Source of the DNA: an uncultured Syntrophaceae bacterium
GTDB taxonomy: Bacteria > Desulfobacterota > SM23-61
DNA length: 64,000 nucleotides
Assembly: GCA_964484485.1 (NCBI GenBank)
Contig: CAZAGD010000033.1
Span: 1,238-65,237, forward strand
Direction: 5' to 3'
The position numbers were made by a program, and so were the translations under genes. A model generated the notes under the pieces. It was not told where the DNA came from, made no database searches, and was given only the letters and a program-made list of their open reading frames with translations. The number at the start of each line of letters is the position of its first letter. Position 1 is the first letter of the stretch. Of this stretch, positions 2,058 through 14,839 are shown piece by piece.

Positions 2058-2690
2058 ATGTCTACCCGCTTAGCAGAAATATTCGCAGATGATAAACTAA
2101 CTGAGAAGATAAAAAGACGCTTACCTTACTTATTTCAGCTTGCAGAGTTAGAAAGTTCAAGAGCGGGTAAAACTGGAATGGAAGTTGGCTCAATTAGAGA
2201 AAGGATAATAGTGGCTTTGTTGATTTATAAATTCGGAGAAGAAAATGTGGAAACAGAAATACCGATTACTGAATCAGAAATAGATGCAAAATTATTTGGG
2301 GAGCCTATATCAATCAAAACGATCACGGGTAAGAATTTGGGCGGTGTCAAACTTATATGGACTGTGGATGCTCAGAAGGCAAAAGAATTTCGTGAGAACT
2401 ATTATCCCCATTGCGATATTTTACTTGTTCAAATCAACTGGAATGATAAAGGGGGATTTTATTACATCCCATTATCAACTCAGAAAATGCTTTTTAATAG
2501 AATAGGCAGAGAAAACTATATCAAGCTTCCAAAACCTGGAACAAATCCCAGAGGTGTAGAAATTACTAAAGAGGCATTATCCAGTTTAATTGAAGCAGAA
2601 GATTCAAAAAGCATCTCAATAATCTGGCAAAGAACAAAAATTGAGTTCAATTGCTATAAAAGATGGGTGGATCTATGGAGGGAAGAATAA
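2058..2690 (+). CDS. putative type II restriction endonuclease (R subunit of R-M pair)
   Basis: 210-aa ORF whose stop overlaps the RBS of the downstream methyltransferase; no other family recognisable; assignment by genomic context only. Confidence 0.4.
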   Translation: MSTRLAEIFADDKLTEKIKRRLPYLFQLAELESSRAGKTGMEVGSIRERIIVALLIYKFGEENVETEIPITESEIDAKLFGEPISIKTITGKNLGGVKLIWTVDAQKAKEFRENYYPHCDILLVQINWNDKGGFYYIPLSTQKMLFNRIGRENYIKLPKPGTNPRGVEITKEALSSLIEAEDSKSISIIWQRTKIEFNCYKRWVDLWREE

Positions 2691-2691
2691 A

Positions 2692-3636
2692 ATGGGATTT
2701 AATAGAAGAAAATATGGCACAAAAACAAGTGCATTCGGTTCTCCGGGAAGAATTAATCATGATTCCACTCCTTTTTATACAAGCAAATTGTATGAGGAAT
2801 TGCCCAAAGAGGAGGCAGTCGAATATGTAGAAAATGCCGTTCCATCAGAGTTTATAGATAAAATCATTTGTAAATCTAGTGAAAAAATGAATGAATTACC
2901 TGATAATAGCATTCATTTGATGGTTACATCTCCTCCTTACAATGTAGGAAAAGAATATGACGAGAATCTCACTTTAAATGAATACAGGTCATTCTTAAAA
3001 AGAGTTTGGAGTGAAGTTAGAAGAGTGCTCGTTCCTGGCGGGAGAGTATGTATCAATATTGCTAATCTTGGAAGAAAACCATACATCCCGCTTCATGCTT
3101 TTATAATTGATGATATGCTTGATTTAGGTTTTTTAATGAGAGGAGAAATAATTTGGAATAAAGCATCAAGTGGTAGTCCTTCAACTGCTTGGGGTAGCTG
3201 GCTTTCTGCTAAGAACCCAACGCTTAGGGACATTCACGAATACATTTTGGTCTTTTCGAAAGGAATGTTTTCTAGAGGAAGTTATGTCAAAAGAAAAAGC
3301 ACCATTTCTAAGGAAGAATTTCTTGAGTTTACGAAAAGTGTATGGACATTTGCTGCTGAGCCAGCATCGAAAATAGGACATCCAGCGCCTTTTCCAGTTG
3401 AATTACCTTACAGATTAATTCAGCTTTACACTTTTGAAGGTGAAGTTGTTTTAGACCCTTTTGTAGGAAGCGGGCAAGCTGCAATTGCAGCGATAAAAAC
3501 AAGACGCCACTATGTTGGATACGATATAAACCGAGAATATGTAAAATTGGCGGAAAAAAGAATTAAAGAATTTTCATTAGCGTTTAATGCACCTAAATTG
3601 TTTGAATTCAGAGAGAAATCAGGCAATTTGATATAA
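2692..3636 (+). CDS. DNA methyltransferase, beta-class amino-MTase (N4-cytosine or N6-adenine)
   Basis: Motif IV SPPY (MVTSPPYNVGKEY) preceding motif I FVGSGQ (DPFVGSGQAAIA) = beta-class order; GGAGGG RBS 9 nt upstream of ATG 2692 (ORF track start 2641 probably too early). Confidence 0.85.
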   Translation: MGFNRRKYGTKTSAFGSPGRINHDSTPFYTSKLYEELPKEEAVEYVENAVPSEFIDKIICKSSEKMNELPDNSIHLMVTSPPYNVGKEYDENLTLNEYRSFLKRVWSEVRRVLVPGGRVCINIANLGRKPYIPLHAFIIDDMLDLGFLMRGEIIWNKASSGSPSTAWGSWLSAKNPTLRDIHEYILVFSKGMFSRGSYVKRKSTISKEEFLEFTKSVWTFAAEPASKIGHPAPFPVELPYRLIQLYTFEGEVVLDPFVGSGQAAIAAIKTRRHYVGYDINREYVKLAEKRIKEFSLAFNAPKLFEFREKSGNLI

Positions 3637-3706: not shown

Positions 3707-4099
3707 ATGGAGTCTCGGAAGGTCTTTAAGATAAAAAATAGTTTTTGCATTTGTCTTCCTTCTTCGATGGTAGAGATGCTTGAGATTAAAAAAGGTGATA
3801 GGTGTCAGTTTCTCTTGCTTCCTGGTTATGGGCTTTTAGTTAAGAAAGAAGGAATGGCCGATAGCTTTCATGCGCAAATGGAGGCTATTTCTGATTTGAG
3901 GCAGGAAGCTGATAATATTTTTCATGACTTTAGGCGTAAGGCACGGGGTTTGGTTCACCAGTTTGGTTTTAGGTTAGCTGAAGAATATATTAGTGCCTTA
4001 TTGGATAATTTAAAACGTCCTGCCCAAAGTTTTTTGGCAGAAGAGCAAAAGGTTCCCGACCTTCTTCTAAGTGGGGAAGAAGAAAAGAAGAAGAGTTGA
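3707..4099 (+). CDS. AbrB/MazE (SpoVT-AbrB swapped-hairpin) family DNA-binding protein
   Basis: N-terminus VFKIKNSFCICLPSSMVEMLEIKKGDRCQFLL matches swapped-hairpin beta-barrel pattern; helical C-terminal extension. Confidence 0.45.
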   Translation: MESRKVFKIKNSFCICLPSSMVEMLEIKKGDRCQFLLLPGYGLLVKKEGMADSFHAQMEAISDLRQEADNIFHDFRRKARGLVHQFGFRLAEEYISALLDNLKRPAQSFLAEEQKVPDLLLSGEEEKKKS

Positions 4100-4323: not shown

Positions 4324-4557
4324 ATGAATAAGAAGCAAAGATGGGTTTTGATTATAGGTGGAATAATCATTGCACAAATGTTATTAAATCCGCCTTTTGA
4401 ATATAAAACTTTAAATGGCGTAACTTATAGTGGGGGATATGGTTGTCTTTTCACGGATTATGGGAGTGGAAAAGGTGTTAATTTAAGTTTATTATTTACG
4501 CAATGGATAGGAGTAATTTTAATATGTGCTATTTTATGGATTGTTTTTAAAAATTGA
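4324..4557 (+). CDS. small membrane protein (2 predicted TM helices)
   Basis: 77 aa, two hydrophobic stretches (VLIIGGIIIAQMLL; GVILICAILWIVF). Confidence 0.35.
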   Translation: MNKKQRWVLIIGGIIIAQMLLNPPFEYKTLNGVTYSGGYGCLFTDYGSGKGVNLSLLFTQWIGVILICAILWIVFKN

Positions 4558-4639
4558 GAATAAAGAATTAAAGCAGTAATTTAGGGGAAAAAGCCATGCA
4601 TTTTTAATCTCTTCTCTTTCCCCAACTAATTATAGAAGG

Positions 4640-5360
4640 GGGTTGAGGGGGAAACGAATTTAGCTGGGGTAGGGGGACTCCAGCGTTAAGAATTTGTTTC
4701 CCCTCATAGCTGCCGCCGCTTTCACCAATGAAAATAGAATGAATGCTAAAGCGGCGAGACCCCGTCCGCCATGATTTTGACGGCTTAGCTGAATAATTAA
4801 GAGAAGAGCGAGAATAAAATTAAATTAAGCTAAAACTTTTCCTTCCCGCAAGGCTCAAGGATTGAGCCCATGGAGAAGGGAAAGTTTTCTCCTTTACAAA
4901 ATTTAGAATAAAGAGGCGGTTTAAAATTGTGCTGGGGGTATCAGGGCTTTGCTTAACCCACTTGGGTGGGCAATTTAGGAAGGGGGTTAAGTGGCCTGAT
5001 ACCAGCCAATTTTGCCTCTTTATTTTAAATTTTGTTTTTTTGGGGGTTGGGTGGGAAAAGAAAAAATTAATCGCGGGGCTTGGGTAAGTGAAAAAATACC
5101 TTTGTTCCGCCCAAAGGCGAAAAAAGCAAAAAGGCTTGGTAGGCCGAGGCTCTGGGTTAAGCCCCCTCCCGCTCCCTATCGGGATCCGGATCCTTGAGGG
5201 CTTAACCTTTCGTCGTTACCGACTCAACCACTCGCCCTTGCCTACAATGCTCCCACCTGGTCGCATTGCTTAACGGCAATGGCTCGGGCAGACCCTCGGC
5301 CTACCAAGCCTTTTTGCCGATCAAAAAAACTTTTTTTCTTACCCAAGCCCCGCAAAAGCT
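4640..5360. ncRNA. candidate large structured RNA or origin-like region: chain of hairpins with nested near-perfect long inverted repeats
   Basis: No ORF >60 aa other than two implausible ones. Hairpins 4644-4704, 4713-4757, 4846-4891. Perfect 11-bp IR 4908-4918/5015-5025 with nested 9- and 8-bp stems. Outer 16-23-bp IR 5073-5096/5330-5353 enclosing perfect 24-bp IR 5126-5151/5293-5311. Recurrent GCTTAAC/GTTAAGC motif. Confidence 0.3.
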
Positions 5361-5965
5361 GCGGCGGCCGCGGCCACATTTTTTTTAATTGAAATTAAAA
5401 CTTTTTAAAGAGAAGCAGTGTAGGATGTTATAAAGGTCTCTCCCAAACCGGGAAACCTCCGCTTACCAGAATAAAGGTAAAAAAGCTAAAAATTAAATTT
5501 TTCCTTTTTTAAGAAATAAGCGAAAGAGACTCGGGCTTAAATTATCGGATTAGCGCAAATATATAAATGCTATTCGAAAAAATGAGTGCGCCATTATACC
5601 AAATCAGTCTTAAAAGATTAGAGATTAGGCTTTAAAATTTGATACCTAACTCAATAATGCTTTTCAAAGAAGATATAAGGCATAGTCAAGTTATAAGTTC
5701 AAGGATTACCTTTAAGCGCTGAGATTTTTCCCGGGATGAATTGAGAAAAAAATTTCTTAAAAAAAAGGGTTCTTCCTTAATTTTGGGGGATGCTTTGATA
5801 TTGTCCGCCATAAAAAGTCTCGTCTAATGGGCTATTATTAAGCCGGGTATTCAAAAAAAATTATTTTTCTATCAAAAAATAATGCTTGACAAGAAAAAAT
5901 TAGTAAGTTATGCTTATAAGTAAGATAGGTATTTAAGATTTAGATATTATGGTGGGGGTGGATGA

Positions 5966-6124
5966 ATGAAAAAGGAAGAGAAAAAATCGAAATCAGTAAG
6001 GTTGCAGGTTCAGCTTGACCCAGAGATAATGAGAGCATTAAGAAGAAGGGCAGCCGATGAATTAAAGACAGTCAGGAAATTAATAATTGAATGGGTGCAG
6101 AGCTGGTCTAAAGAAAAGAAATAG
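5966..6124 (+). CDS. small RHH/Arc-like putative DNA-binding protein (52 aa)
   Basis: ATG 5966 preceded by GGTGGGGGTGG; translation MKKEEKKSKSVRLQVQLDPEIMRALRRRAADELKTVRKLIIEWVQSWSKEKK has beta-strand then two helices typical of ribbon-helix-helix; below ORF-track cutoff. Confidence 0.35.
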   Translation: MKKEEKKSKSVRLQVQLDPEIMRALRRRAADELKTVRKLIIEWVQSWSKEKK

Positions 6125-6280: not shown

Positions 6281-6474
6281 AGCTCTGCGATCTTGGGGAA
6301 AAAGAAGTTGAAAAAGATCCTTGAATAAAAAATTAATGGCGCCACCCGGAACCGGCTAAGGAACCAAGGAGCGCCCGGGCAGGCATGCCAATTAACTGGC
6401 CCACCCACCATTTTATTTATAGCACGGATTGATATGGGAGAGCAATAAAAAATGGAAAAAAATGGAGGTAGTCC

Positions 6475-7539
6475 ATGGGTGTTTATAAAAGGGGGAATGT
6501 TTATTACATAGATTATTATTTTGAGGGAAATAGGATTCGGGAGCGAGTGGGTAAGAATAAAAGACAAGCTGAGTTGGCTCTTGCTTCAAGGAAAGGGGAG
6601 ATTGCTCAAGGGAAATTTAATCTTGAGCGAGTAAAAAAGACTCCTTATTTTGAAGAATTTGCCAAGGAATATTTAGATTGGGCCAAAATCAATCATCGCT
6701 CTTGGGAAAGAATGGATGCAGTGCGGATAAAATGTTTATCGAATTTTTTTTCAGGGAGGCGCTTAAATGAAATCACGCCTTGGCTCATAGAGAAATTTAA
6801 ATCAGAGAGGAAAGATAAAGTAAAGCCGGCGACAATTAACCGAGAGTTGGCCGTGCTCTCGGCCATGCTTTCTCGGGCGATAGAATGGGGGAAGCTTAAT
6901 GAGCATCCTATGAAAGGTGGAAAGGTTAAAAAACTAAGAGAAGATGGCCATAAAGAAAAGATATTAACTGAAGAAGAAGAGAGTCGGCTTTTATCTGTGT
7001 GTAGAGGATGGTTTAAAGAAATGGTGGTTATAGCCTTAGATACCGGAATGCGTCTATCAGAGATAATTGAATTAAAAAAAGAGGATATTGACCTTAATAA
7101 TCATTTAATAAAAGTGAAACATACCAAAAGCGGCAGAGAGAGGAAAATTCCCTTAACTGAAAGAGTATTCTCCATACTGGCAGAGAGGATTAAAGAAGTT
7201 AAAGATTCGGAATTTATTTTTGCCAAAGGAAATGGAAATAAGTTATGGGCTGTAAGGAGTGCCTTTCTTAGGGCTTGTAAGAGAGCTGGTTTTGTTGGTT
7301 TGAGGTTTCATGATCTGCGGCATACCTTTGCTACTCGCTTAGTAACTTCCGGAATTGACCTGGCCACGGTGCAAAAATTACTTGGTCATGAAAATATTCA
7401 AATGACCTTGAGATATTCGCATCCAAGGTCTGAGGATATGAAGCGGGCCATAAAAATTCTTGAGAAGAATGCGGAGAGCAGTCACAAAATGGTCACAAAA
7501 GATGAAATGAAATTATTAAATCTTTGTATAACCCCTTGA
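6475..7539 (+). CDS. int: tyrosine site-specific integrase (phage integrase family)
   Basis: C-terminal catalytic motifs [11 protein letters not shown] and [14 protein letters not shown] (R-H-R-Y); N-terminal arm/SAM-like domain; ends 7 nt from tRNA 3' end. Confidence 0.9.
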
Positions 7540-7545
7540 AATTAC

Positions 7546-7622
7546 TGGCGCGCCCAGCCCGACTCGAACGGGCGACCTACGGATTCGTAGTCCGGCGCTC
7601 TATCCAACTGAGCTATGGGCGC
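7546..7622 (-). tRNA. tRNA-Arg (anticodon ACG)
   Basis: Reverse complement GCGCCCATAGCTCAGTTGGATAGAGCGCCGGACTACGAATCCGTAGGTCGCCCGTTCGAGTCGGGCTGGGCGCGCCA folds as cloverleaf: 7-bp acceptor, D-arm GCTC/GAGC, anticodon loop CTACGAA, T-arm GCCCG/CGGGC, encoded CCA. Confidence 0.9.
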
Positions 7623-14499: not shown

Positions 14500-14774
14500 T
14501 CTTAAGAGACTGGGTCGTAATTAATAAATGGCTAACTTTTGGTGAAGGAACCGGAGGCAGGCCAGAGGCAGGCCAGAGGCAGGCATTCATTCAGAATCAT
14601 GAGGCAGTGGCTTTTCCATAGGTACAGGCGGATTTAGAAGCTTGCTCAAATTGCTTAGTTTAACGATCCGCCCACTCTTTGCGGAAAATCGTTGACCGAT
14701 TTTGAACAGCTTCTTCTCCCGCCGATGCTTCTTCATTCATGCCTGCCTCTGGCCTGCCTCTGGCCTGCCTCCGG
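14500..14774. repeat. MITE-like element with ~38-bp terminal inverted repeats built from tandem GGCAGGCCAGAG units
   Basis: 14551-14592 CCGGAGGCAGGCCAGAGGCAGGCCAGAGGCAGGCATTCATTC is the reverse complement of 14743-14774; flank 14500-14550 is re-found (reverse complement) next to a solo copy at 39661-39745. Confidence 0.5.
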
Positions 14775-14839
14775 CCCTTTCTCGCCATGGCGACACAGTC
14801 TCTAATTTAAGAAGGAGTTGGGGGAGTTAGAGATTTTTT

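Follow-up and report, generated by a model that had tools for sequence, protein, structure and literature searches.

What kind of element is formed by two long, almost perfect inverted repeats nested one inside the other in DNA without genes? The question is raised by a 64,000-nucleotide stretch from an uncultured Syntrophaceae bacterium (contig CAZAGD010000033.1, positions 1,238 to 65,237; hereafter the window), in which such repeats occupy part of an integrative island. The initial annotation proposed a highly structured non-coding RNA (ncRNA), a cruciform-forming origin of replication or of transfer (oriT), or a nested insertion of a miniature inverted-repeat transposable element (MITE). 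We confirmed the repeats as a 29-bp pair inside a 23-bp pair, which close a giant hairpin of roughly 280 nt, here called H5. What the annotation lacked is a conserved module of 1.26 kb to which H5 belongs, a hypervariable core within the inner repeat, the inversion of that core in the window, and a preference of H5 for folding on the minus strand here. Among the three proposals the structured ncRNA fits, the fold being kept by compensated changes, whereas an origin or oriT is disfavoured and a nested MITE unsupported. We tentatively favour H5 as a domain of a large structured ncRNA module of mobile islands, whose perfect arms have bounded an inversion in the window and the replacement of a cassette in its relatives.

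The outer repeat of H5 pairs GCGGGGCTTGGGTAAG(T)GAAAAAA with its counterpart over 23 bp, leaving one bulged T, and the inner repeat is 97 % complementary over 29 nt, with a single C.C mismatch (5150/5293) and perfect pairing of 5126-5149 (24 nt) with 5294-5317 (Table 1). The position first given for the outer stem was exact, while the limits of the inner stem (5126-5151 and 5293-5311) were a few bases off. All of the further stems described inside H5 were located in the sequence, namely GGTTAAGCC (5155-5164) with GGGCTTAACC (5198-5207), GGATCCGGATCC (5183-5194) and CATTGC/GCAATG (5264-5282). The pairing is far from what chance would yield. Neither arm motif occurs beyond these two places in the 64-kb window, which holds only one other inverted repeat of comparable length. 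Folded as RNA, a stretch of 306 nt reaches -150.2 kcal/mol on the plus strand against -89.7 ± 5.1 for shuffled sequences (z = -11.8), and -174.1 against about -106 on the minus strand (z = -12.6); none of 100 shuffles matched the fold energy of H5. DNA energy parameters return the same structure, with a z-score of about -12.8.

H5 is the last of five long hairpins (H1-H5) in a conserved gene-free module of 1.26 kb, which sits in a 1.4-kb gap between genes (4558-5965); the fold z-score of 4560-5420 is about -14. Relatives were found through homologues of the neighbouring AbrB-like protein and then through the contigs that carry them. L001 is an independent contig of the window's own island, and L078-L083, L094 and L097-L099, from nine samples, represent a second island type with an AbrB-like homologue 72 % identical to that of the window; L097-L099 stop short of the hairpin. 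The second island encodes a 383-aa integrase, two HTH_17 proteins, a DnaG-type Zn-ribbon protein, a 592-aa Toprim-DUF3987 primase-helicase, the AbrB-like protein and a 322-aa protein. In other contigs it is integrated at tRNA-Glu(CTC), with an att core near L080 1304-1354; L080 itself (9,123 nt) has an exact 79-bp end overlap that gives a 9,044-bp circle. Between the two island types the helicases (Rep) are 22 % and the integrases 33 % identical, and the module retains about 92 % nucleotide identity over 4605-5154 and about 84 % over 5289-5863 (blastn). Because this identity holds despite the divergence of Rep and integrase, the hairpins belong to a module that either moved between very different elements or was held far more constant than their genes.

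Public annotations place a 52-aa open reading frame (ORF) across H4 and H5 (4929-5087; L080 8676-8834). Because it shows 12 nonsynonymous against 1 synonymous codon differences, we regard it as non-coding; by this substitution pattern the ORF is spurious and the module is under no protein-level constraint, and a protein-coding role of the module was rejected on the same grounds. A homologue search with the 52-aa pseudo-ORF returned one cluster only, a six-frame pseudo-protein search of the region gave no match among the candidates listed, and exact look-up of the spurious ORFs gave none.

The core inside the inner repeat is found as three alleles, in the window, in the L078 type and in L080, each exactly 134 nt long and framed by arms with the invariant pattern GCAAAAAGGCTTGGTAGG-N(150-175)-CCTACCAAGCCTTTTTGC. 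Its variability is seen most directly between L083 and L080, which have identical Rep genes and are 99.97 % identical outside the hairpin: 56 of their 58 differences over 6,217 nt fall inside the inner hairpin (L080 8893-9044), and no second variable site was found in these two islands. Ordinary drift cannot produce differences clustered to this degree. Either a diverged cassette was imported, the recombination falling within the outer 20 invariant nt of the arms, or the core underwent targeted diversification of some form. All three alleles nevertheless fold alike. A P1 helix of 29-32 bp encloses three hairpins: the long P2, whose tip varies; P3, of 4-6 bp, which ends in a GNRA loop (GUAA, GCAA and GUAA); and P4, in which a conserved base, GGUUAAGCC/GGCUUAACC, carries a variable tip. 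The stem of P3 is fully compensated across the alleles (GUCG/CGAC, GCUU/AAGC and GUCG/UGAC). In a four-row alignment 94.7 % of cells are paired, and 11 pairs are changed on both sides against 6.4 ± 1.4 in shuffles (none of 500 had as many) and 1-3 in slid controls, numbers that are no more than indicative with three distinct alleles. Pairing-preserving covariation, the general mark of a structured ncRNA, is present among these alleles. The initial annotation had regarded an unconserved pairing pattern in homologous loci as the outcome that would speak against an ncRNA; we find the fold kept in three alleles through compensated changes.

Same-orientation alignments of the window to its relatives break off precisely where the 29-bp arms end on their inner side. 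When the 134-nt core of the window is reverse-complemented, its identity rises from about 0.5 to 0.86 with L078 and 0.75 with L080. Both linkers, and the side hairpin of the left one, are unflipped, and the inversion is confined to the segment between the inner arms. Judged from these alignments, the core is inverted in the window relative to its relatives. The window orientation is confirmed by L001, a contig from a separate assembly that begins inside the core and crosses the right arm, and six assemblies (L078, L079, L080, L082, L083 and L094) have the opposite one. The two orientations are seen between lineages only, with the window and L001 on one side and the six other assemblies on the other.

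Strand preference differs between the parts of the module. H1-H4 fold better on the plus strand in both island types, with 16-19 G.U pairs on that strand against 4-7 on the minus strand, and each of the six one-sided changes in their helices is a transition between a G.U wobble and a G-C or A-U pair, which remains paired on the plus strand and would leave an A.C mismatch on the minus strand in one lineage. H4, with an outer repeat (I4) of 95 %, folds at -66.1 on the plus strand against -55.5 on the minus strand, and every one of its four one-sided changes relative to L078 gives G.U on the plus strand. H5 prefers the plus strand in L078 (-180 against -168) and in L080 (-167 against -153), and the minus strand in the window (-171 against -148 on plus), where A.C mismatches of the linker helix on the plus strand are G.U pairs on the minus strand. 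Two clusters of G-to-A differences (5056-5066 and 5120-5125) give the window minus-strand U-runs after P1, the side hairpin and the outer stem; these are absent in the relatives, and the differences are unpolarised, with no outgroup. We suggest that in the window lineage the flipped core would be read from the minus strand, because the minus strand folds best, the A.C mismatches of the linker become G.U on it, and the U-runs lie on it. The wobble asymmetry points to a function as a single strand, and strand-specific wobble pairing together with the maintained GNRA loop favours RNA.

Nested giant hairpins are also found in more distant islands, whose AbrB-like proteins are 47-50 % identical to that of the window; they lie in 1-2 kb of DNA without genes that follows the AbrB-like gene. 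L084 has a 22-nt outer stem and a 26-nt perfect inner stem, shows collinear weak nhmmer matches to the module and has in common with it the motif CCTCATAGCTGCCGC, which in the window directly follows H1 (to about 4718). L087 and L088 have nested stems of 16 and 38 nt; the five copies of the L087-type island are identical over the hairpin and hence uninformative on variation. L101 has triple-nested stems and a 102-nt three-hairpin core, with CCCG(A)TAGGGAGCGG(G)AG in common with P4. On the evidence of these stems the nested-hairpin architecture is recurrent across the island family, and a recent palindromic duplication is excluded. In a further island, L069 (integrase 60 % identical), an 830-nt gene-free region (560-1390) lies between the AbrB-like and ribbon-helix-helix (RHH) genes; it has no sequence similarity to the module and gives fold z-scores of -14.9 on the strand opposite the RHH gene and -8.0 on the other.

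Outside these islands little was recovered. Blastn of 4560-5960 against phage and plasmid databases gave no match, and the exact arm 17-mer GGCTTGGTAGGCCGAGG, which spans a variable arm position (CCGAGG or CCAAGG), gave single chance matches only in viral contigs and 185,579 GTDB species genomes. The gapped arm pattern had no match in viral contigs. A search for loci by integrase yielded none in the viral set and seven in the metagenome set, the hairpin being present in none of the seven, and a covariance model of the core detected no further copies in the fetched loci. An Rfam/Infernal scan, as the initial annotation had suggested, matched no family: at gathering thresholds (4,227 models) the window contains tRNA-Arg only, the relatives L078, L080, L084, L087, L088 and L069 contain tRNAs only, and over 4400-6100 at E ≤ 10 there is sub-threshold noise of 11-22 bits against thresholds of 39-176.

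The reading that we tentatively prefer, an ncRNA module with H5 as one of its domains, can be put as a mechanism. The module would travel as a unit among small integrative primase-helicase islands (with a layout like that of P4 or the phage-inducible chromosomal islands, PICI) of thermophilic Thermodesulfobacteriota in hot springs, and H5 would act in single-stranded, folded form, most likely as RNA. For the relatives a single structured plus-strand RNA of about 0.8 kb would be read from the whole module, located downstream of the AbrB-like operon and terminated at 5358-5385. At the RNA level the arms would pair into a long duplex on which the core is presented or from which RNase III-type processing could release it; at the DNA level they would be a 29-bp inverted-repeat substrate, the core being flipped by arm-to-arm recombination and its alleles swapped by recombination with other family members. 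The variable tips of P2 and P4 might be specificity determinants in RNA-RNA or RNA-protein recognition, kept diverse among co-circulating islands.

Several observations weigh against this proposal. Only three distinct alleles are available, which makes the covariation statistics weak, and the proposed specificity of the tips comes with no identified partner. Fold and strand preference are unchanged under DNA parameters, and a folded single DNA strand would fit the covariation equally well. The two closing helices are nearly free of G.U pairs, a condition commoner in DNA-level inverted repeats than in RNA helices. No convincing promoter lies beside H5 on either strand, the terminator-like H4 with its T7 run stands upstream of it, and the strand preference of L101 is unclear. 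Rfam matches are absent even at E ≤ 10, which leaves covariation and wobble asymmetry to carry the designation as RNA. Active switching of the core would be hypothetical, its orientation being constant per lineage in all eight assemblies (2 of 2 window-type and 6 of 6 other-type).

The strongest rival is an element of replication acting at the DNA level. As a stem-loop origin, or as a priming site on a single strand, H5 would come into use once the island's primase-helicase had unwound the DNA; we judge this unlikely. The islands encode a Zn-ribbon/Toprim primase and a DUF3987 helicase with winged helix, pairing in the closing helices is perfectly Watson-Crick, folding as DNA is just as significant and no promoter was found. 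A three-hairpin core of about 134 nt also resembles priming signals (ssi) of the G4 type. A very similar pattern is known from the pRN family of Sulfolobus plasmids, in which an essential stem-loop of ~100 nt downstream of the primase-helicase gene works when relocated, is the sole unconserved stretch between conserved flanks, and folds alike in all plasmids (PMC4234260). Both systems combine a primase-helicase-winged-helix replicon with a variable stem-loop of constant fold; here, however, the host is bacterial, the primase is Toprim/DnaG-like and not of the prim-pol type, and the hairpin is 3.5 kb from the Rep gene. Each island type moreover has its own iteron cluster just after the helicase gene, the usual Rep-specific origin. 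An origin would be expected to contain a cis element beside Rep or co-varying with it, and H5 is neither: islands whose Reps are 22 % identical have almost identical arms and cores that are 86 % identical, and islands with identical Reps carry cores that differ at more than 50 positions. The strong, RNA-typical G.U asymmetry of H1-H4 likewise speaks against a DNA element. For the cruciform origin or oriT first envisaged, the position of the iterons elsewhere, cores that do not follow Rep type and the absence of a relaxase all tell against it. Were H5 nonetheless an origin or priming hairpin, the pRN1-type idea of a variable stem-loop would extend to bacterial integrative elements.

If the arms are instead the business end of the structure, H5 could be an active phase-variable inverton, its 134-bp segment flipped between ON and OFF states by a site-specific recombinase. 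The flanking inverted repeats (29-bp arms, 97-100 % complementary) have the length and spacing of those of invertons such as fimS, Hin/Gin and the Bacteroides promoter invertons, in which a short repeat-bounded segment occurs in both orientations, as it does here among relatives; the near-identity of the arms and a concerted G-C to A-T change in them could reflect frequent arm-to-arm recombination, the islands have tyrosine recombinase genes, and contigs break inside the module in several assemblies. Such switching is nevertheless hard to reconcile with an orientation that does not vary within a lineage in the assemblies compared, with the absence of any dedicated invertase beyond the island integrases, and with arms that are identical although those integrases are 33 % identical and use different att sites (tRNA-Arg and tRNA-Glu). 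The core contains no promoter-like site or coding sequence, perfect arms around a structured hypervariable interior are atypical of invertons, and the contig breaks (4635, 5217 and 5649) are not at arm boundaries; we consider an inverton quite unlikely. Slightly less probable still is an oversized bidirectional terminator or insulator, with H4 and H5 stopping convergent or read-through transcription between the cargo and the RHH-integrase operons. Intrinsic-terminator-like signals are present at 5358-5385 (plus), at 5098-5118 (minus) and in H4 with its T7 run, and H5 (281 nt) resembles one loosely, through its minus-strand U-runs in the window lineage; all island genes are on the plus strand, and the RHH promoter begins just past the module. 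Termination, however, requires no fixed-length 134-nt core of three hairpins, no GNRA loop and no allelic hypervariability, the 1.26-kb module is more conserved than the adjacent genes, and the minus-strand U-runs are missing from the relatives. Least probable of all, to the point of being remote, is a nested foldback or MITE-like insertion, in which a 192-bp unit with 29-bp terminal inverted repeats entered an older hairpin and family members occupy the same site in either orientation. Like Correia, ERIC and RUP elements, H5 does consist of 100-200 bp of non-coding DNA between terminal inverted repeats of 20-30 bp and folds as RNA, and different alleles in both orientations are found at one site in otherwise identical DNA. 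Its flanks nevertheless lack a target-site duplication, the window and about 160 kb of related loci contain no second copy, and the species genomes, scanned for one 17-nt arm variant, held single chance matches only. The position within a collinear module is fixed, the alleles start to diverge within the arms and not at the outer ends of these, in L101 the same architecture takes the form of a single continuous nested hairpin, and the covarying interior is unexpected for such an element.

A number of narrower candidates were rejected. An integron attC site would have R'' (RYYYAAC) ahead of R' (GTTRRRY) on the folded strand and an IntI integrase close by; here GTTAAGC comes before GCTTAAC whichever strand is read, contrary to the order required, and there is no IntI, the integrases being of phage type. 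A retron was dismissed for want of a reverse transcriptase gene beside the hairpins, and mutagenesis of the diversity-generating retroelement (DGR) type since the islands lack a reverse transcriptase and show compensatory, not adenine-specific, changes. Guidance of integration in the manner of a bridge RNA is contradicted by L078 and L080, whose att regions are 99.2 % identical (tRNA-Glu) and whose cores differ.

Compared with known RNA classes, the ncRNA module that we prefer is most like GOLLD, ROOL and HEARO/omega RNAs. It has in common with them a size of several hundred nt, dense G+C-rich helices in an A+T-rich context, residence in integrative elements beside an integrase and a tRNA att site, and an unknown or accessory function; it differs in having no Rfam match and, for H5, no nuclease partner of the IscB/TnpB type. 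To our knowledge a hypervariable, invertible core bounded by perfect 29-bp arms has not been described for the GOLLD, ROOL and HEARO families. Another likeness is to the antisense and immunity RNAs. In ColE1 RNAI/RNAII, R1 CopA, the P4 CI RNA and P1/P7 c4, stem-loop pairing is kept while sequences diversify among co-resident replicons, and P4, like these islands, is a satellite with an integrase and a primase-helicase. H5 differs from them in having no identified target and no sequence or Rfam similarity, and in its size and long closing helices. A bolder extension, which we regard as speculative and unlikely, would make the core an exchangeable, flippable specificity cassette of a mobile-element RNA and the arms dedicated recombination handles for swapping and inverting alleles, an RNA counterpart of shufflons and antigenic cassettes that would serve immunity, incompatibility or interference between co-resident elements or helper phages.

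Should the module act as RNA, an unclassified structured RNA of ~0.8 kb from a poorly studied thermophilic phylum would join the short list of those on bacterial mobile elements. One domain of fixed size would then be replaced wholesale between otherwise identical elements and be flippable at perfect arms, a property undescribed for the known classes, and the locus would offer a concrete instance in which diversifying selection on a non-coding structure, or the exchange of its cassettes, could be tested.

Table 1 Features of the island and of the gene-free module, in window coordinates (fold energies in kcal/mol)
Feature	Position	Strand	Remarks
DUF3987 helicase with winged helix	361-1527	+	
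ThaI restriction-modification pair	2058-3636	+	ThaI-type restriction endonuclease and N4/N6 DNA methyltransferase; cargo
AbrB/antidote-like protein	3707-4099	+	
77-aa membrane protein	4324-4557	+	
Conserved gene-free module	4605-5865		five long hairpins H1-H5, terminator, AT-rich conserved right part; blastn against L078-L083
H1	4614-4703	+	two hairpins, 4614-4647 and 4648-4703; -43.6 on + against -34.5 on -; one-sided changes retain G.U on +
Weaker hairpin	about 4713-4760		between H1 and H3
H3	4832-4888	+	inverted repeat I3; fold
H4	4896-5042	+	140-nt nested hairpin (4896-5035); 22-bp outer stem 4896-4917/5014-5035; T7 at 5036-5042
H5 outer stem, left arm	5073-5096		inverted repeat I1; relatives differ at one base only
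Side hairpin, left linker	5098-5118	-	followed by ATTTTTT on -, terminator-like (terminator scan); L078 sequence diverged, pairing kept
H5 inner stem P1, left arm	5126-5154		outer 20 nt invariant across alleles; one pair compensated, G-C to A-U
134-nt hypervariable core	5155-5288	-	sense (G-rich) strand is minus here; P2 5234-5283, P3 with GUAA loop 5208-5227, P4 5155-5207
H5 inner stem P1, right arm	5289-5317		inverted repeat and alignment to relatives
H5 outer stem, right arm	5330-5353		5289-5357 almost invariant between island types
GC-rich hairpin and T8	5358-5385	+	intrinsic-terminator-like; closes structured part; kept in relatives despite substitutions
AT-rich right part with conserved blocks	5386-5865		consensus RNA structure poorly supported here
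Sigma-70-like promoter TTGACA-17-TATGCT	5886-5914	+	serves Arc/RHH-like and integrase genes; right limit of module
Arc/RHH-like gene	5966-6124	+	
Tyrosine integrase	6475-7539	+	

Other parts of the module have features of their own. H4 with its T7 run, which is kept in the relatives, looks like a terminator for plus-strand transcripts. An 85-nt block just upstream of the RHH promoter (5781-5865), of the form TTTGATAT.GTCC...AAAAGTCTCGTCTA..GGGCTATTATT.AGCC, is also kept in the distant island L084 (5416-5533) and in an island type without an RHH gene, and may be a protein-binding site. Contigs of the window's island end at 4635, 5217 and 5649 (L005, L006, L001, L007-L009 and L065). At least four metagenome assemblies break at the same two positions inside the module, no module-spanning contig was found among the matches, and the sequence at 4635 and 5649 contains no inverted or direct repeat; the shared breaks may reflect module variants that co-exist in populations. 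A module in which assemblies tend to break, and in which public annotations place a spurious 52-aa gene, is easily missed.

The island is of the integrase/primase-helicase type and is integrated at tRNA-Arg(ACG) (7546-7622). Names attached to identical chromosomal proteins point to a host among the Thermodesulfobacteriota, represented by a MAG from hot-spring metagenomes. No reverse transcriptase was found among its proteins in Pfam, PHROGs, NCBIfam and PADLOC scans. The statement of the initial annotation that no reverse transcriptase or nuclease gene is adjacent to the repeats therefore holds for the former and needs qualification for the latter, the ThaI restriction endonuclease gene lying 2.4 kb upstream of H5 and the tyrosine integrase gene 1.1 kb downstream. 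The A+T-rich gap right after the helicase gene (1610-1710) contains five copies of the iteron TACGAACG[A/C]ATTT in direct and inverted orientation. In L080 the primase-helicase gene is followed by six copies of CTGTTGCCA (6528-6740) and three 10-bp-spaced TTTTGRGCAAT units (6815-6849), and a k-mer search detected no iterons within the module. The iteron clusters are likely replication origins of their respective islands.

The gene that follows the AbrB-like gene differs in each of the related islands, encoding the 77-aa membrane protein, a 322-aa protein, a WYL protein, or proteins of 199 and 209 aa, and the site looks like a hotspot for cargo or defence genes. At the right end of the island L002 (1333-1429) departs from the window at 7594, inside tRNA-Arg, which probably marks the att boundary or else a site that is empty or alternative. 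In L003 and L004 window position 6446 is preceded by 29 unmatched bases (1-29). Away from the island, a second long inverted repeat (14544-14781) with 57-nt arms that are built from three tandem GGCAGGCCAGA units, 86 % complementary and 124 nt apart is intergenic, between divergent chromosomal genes of a 2-oxoacid oxidoreductase / succinyl-CoA ligase cluster.

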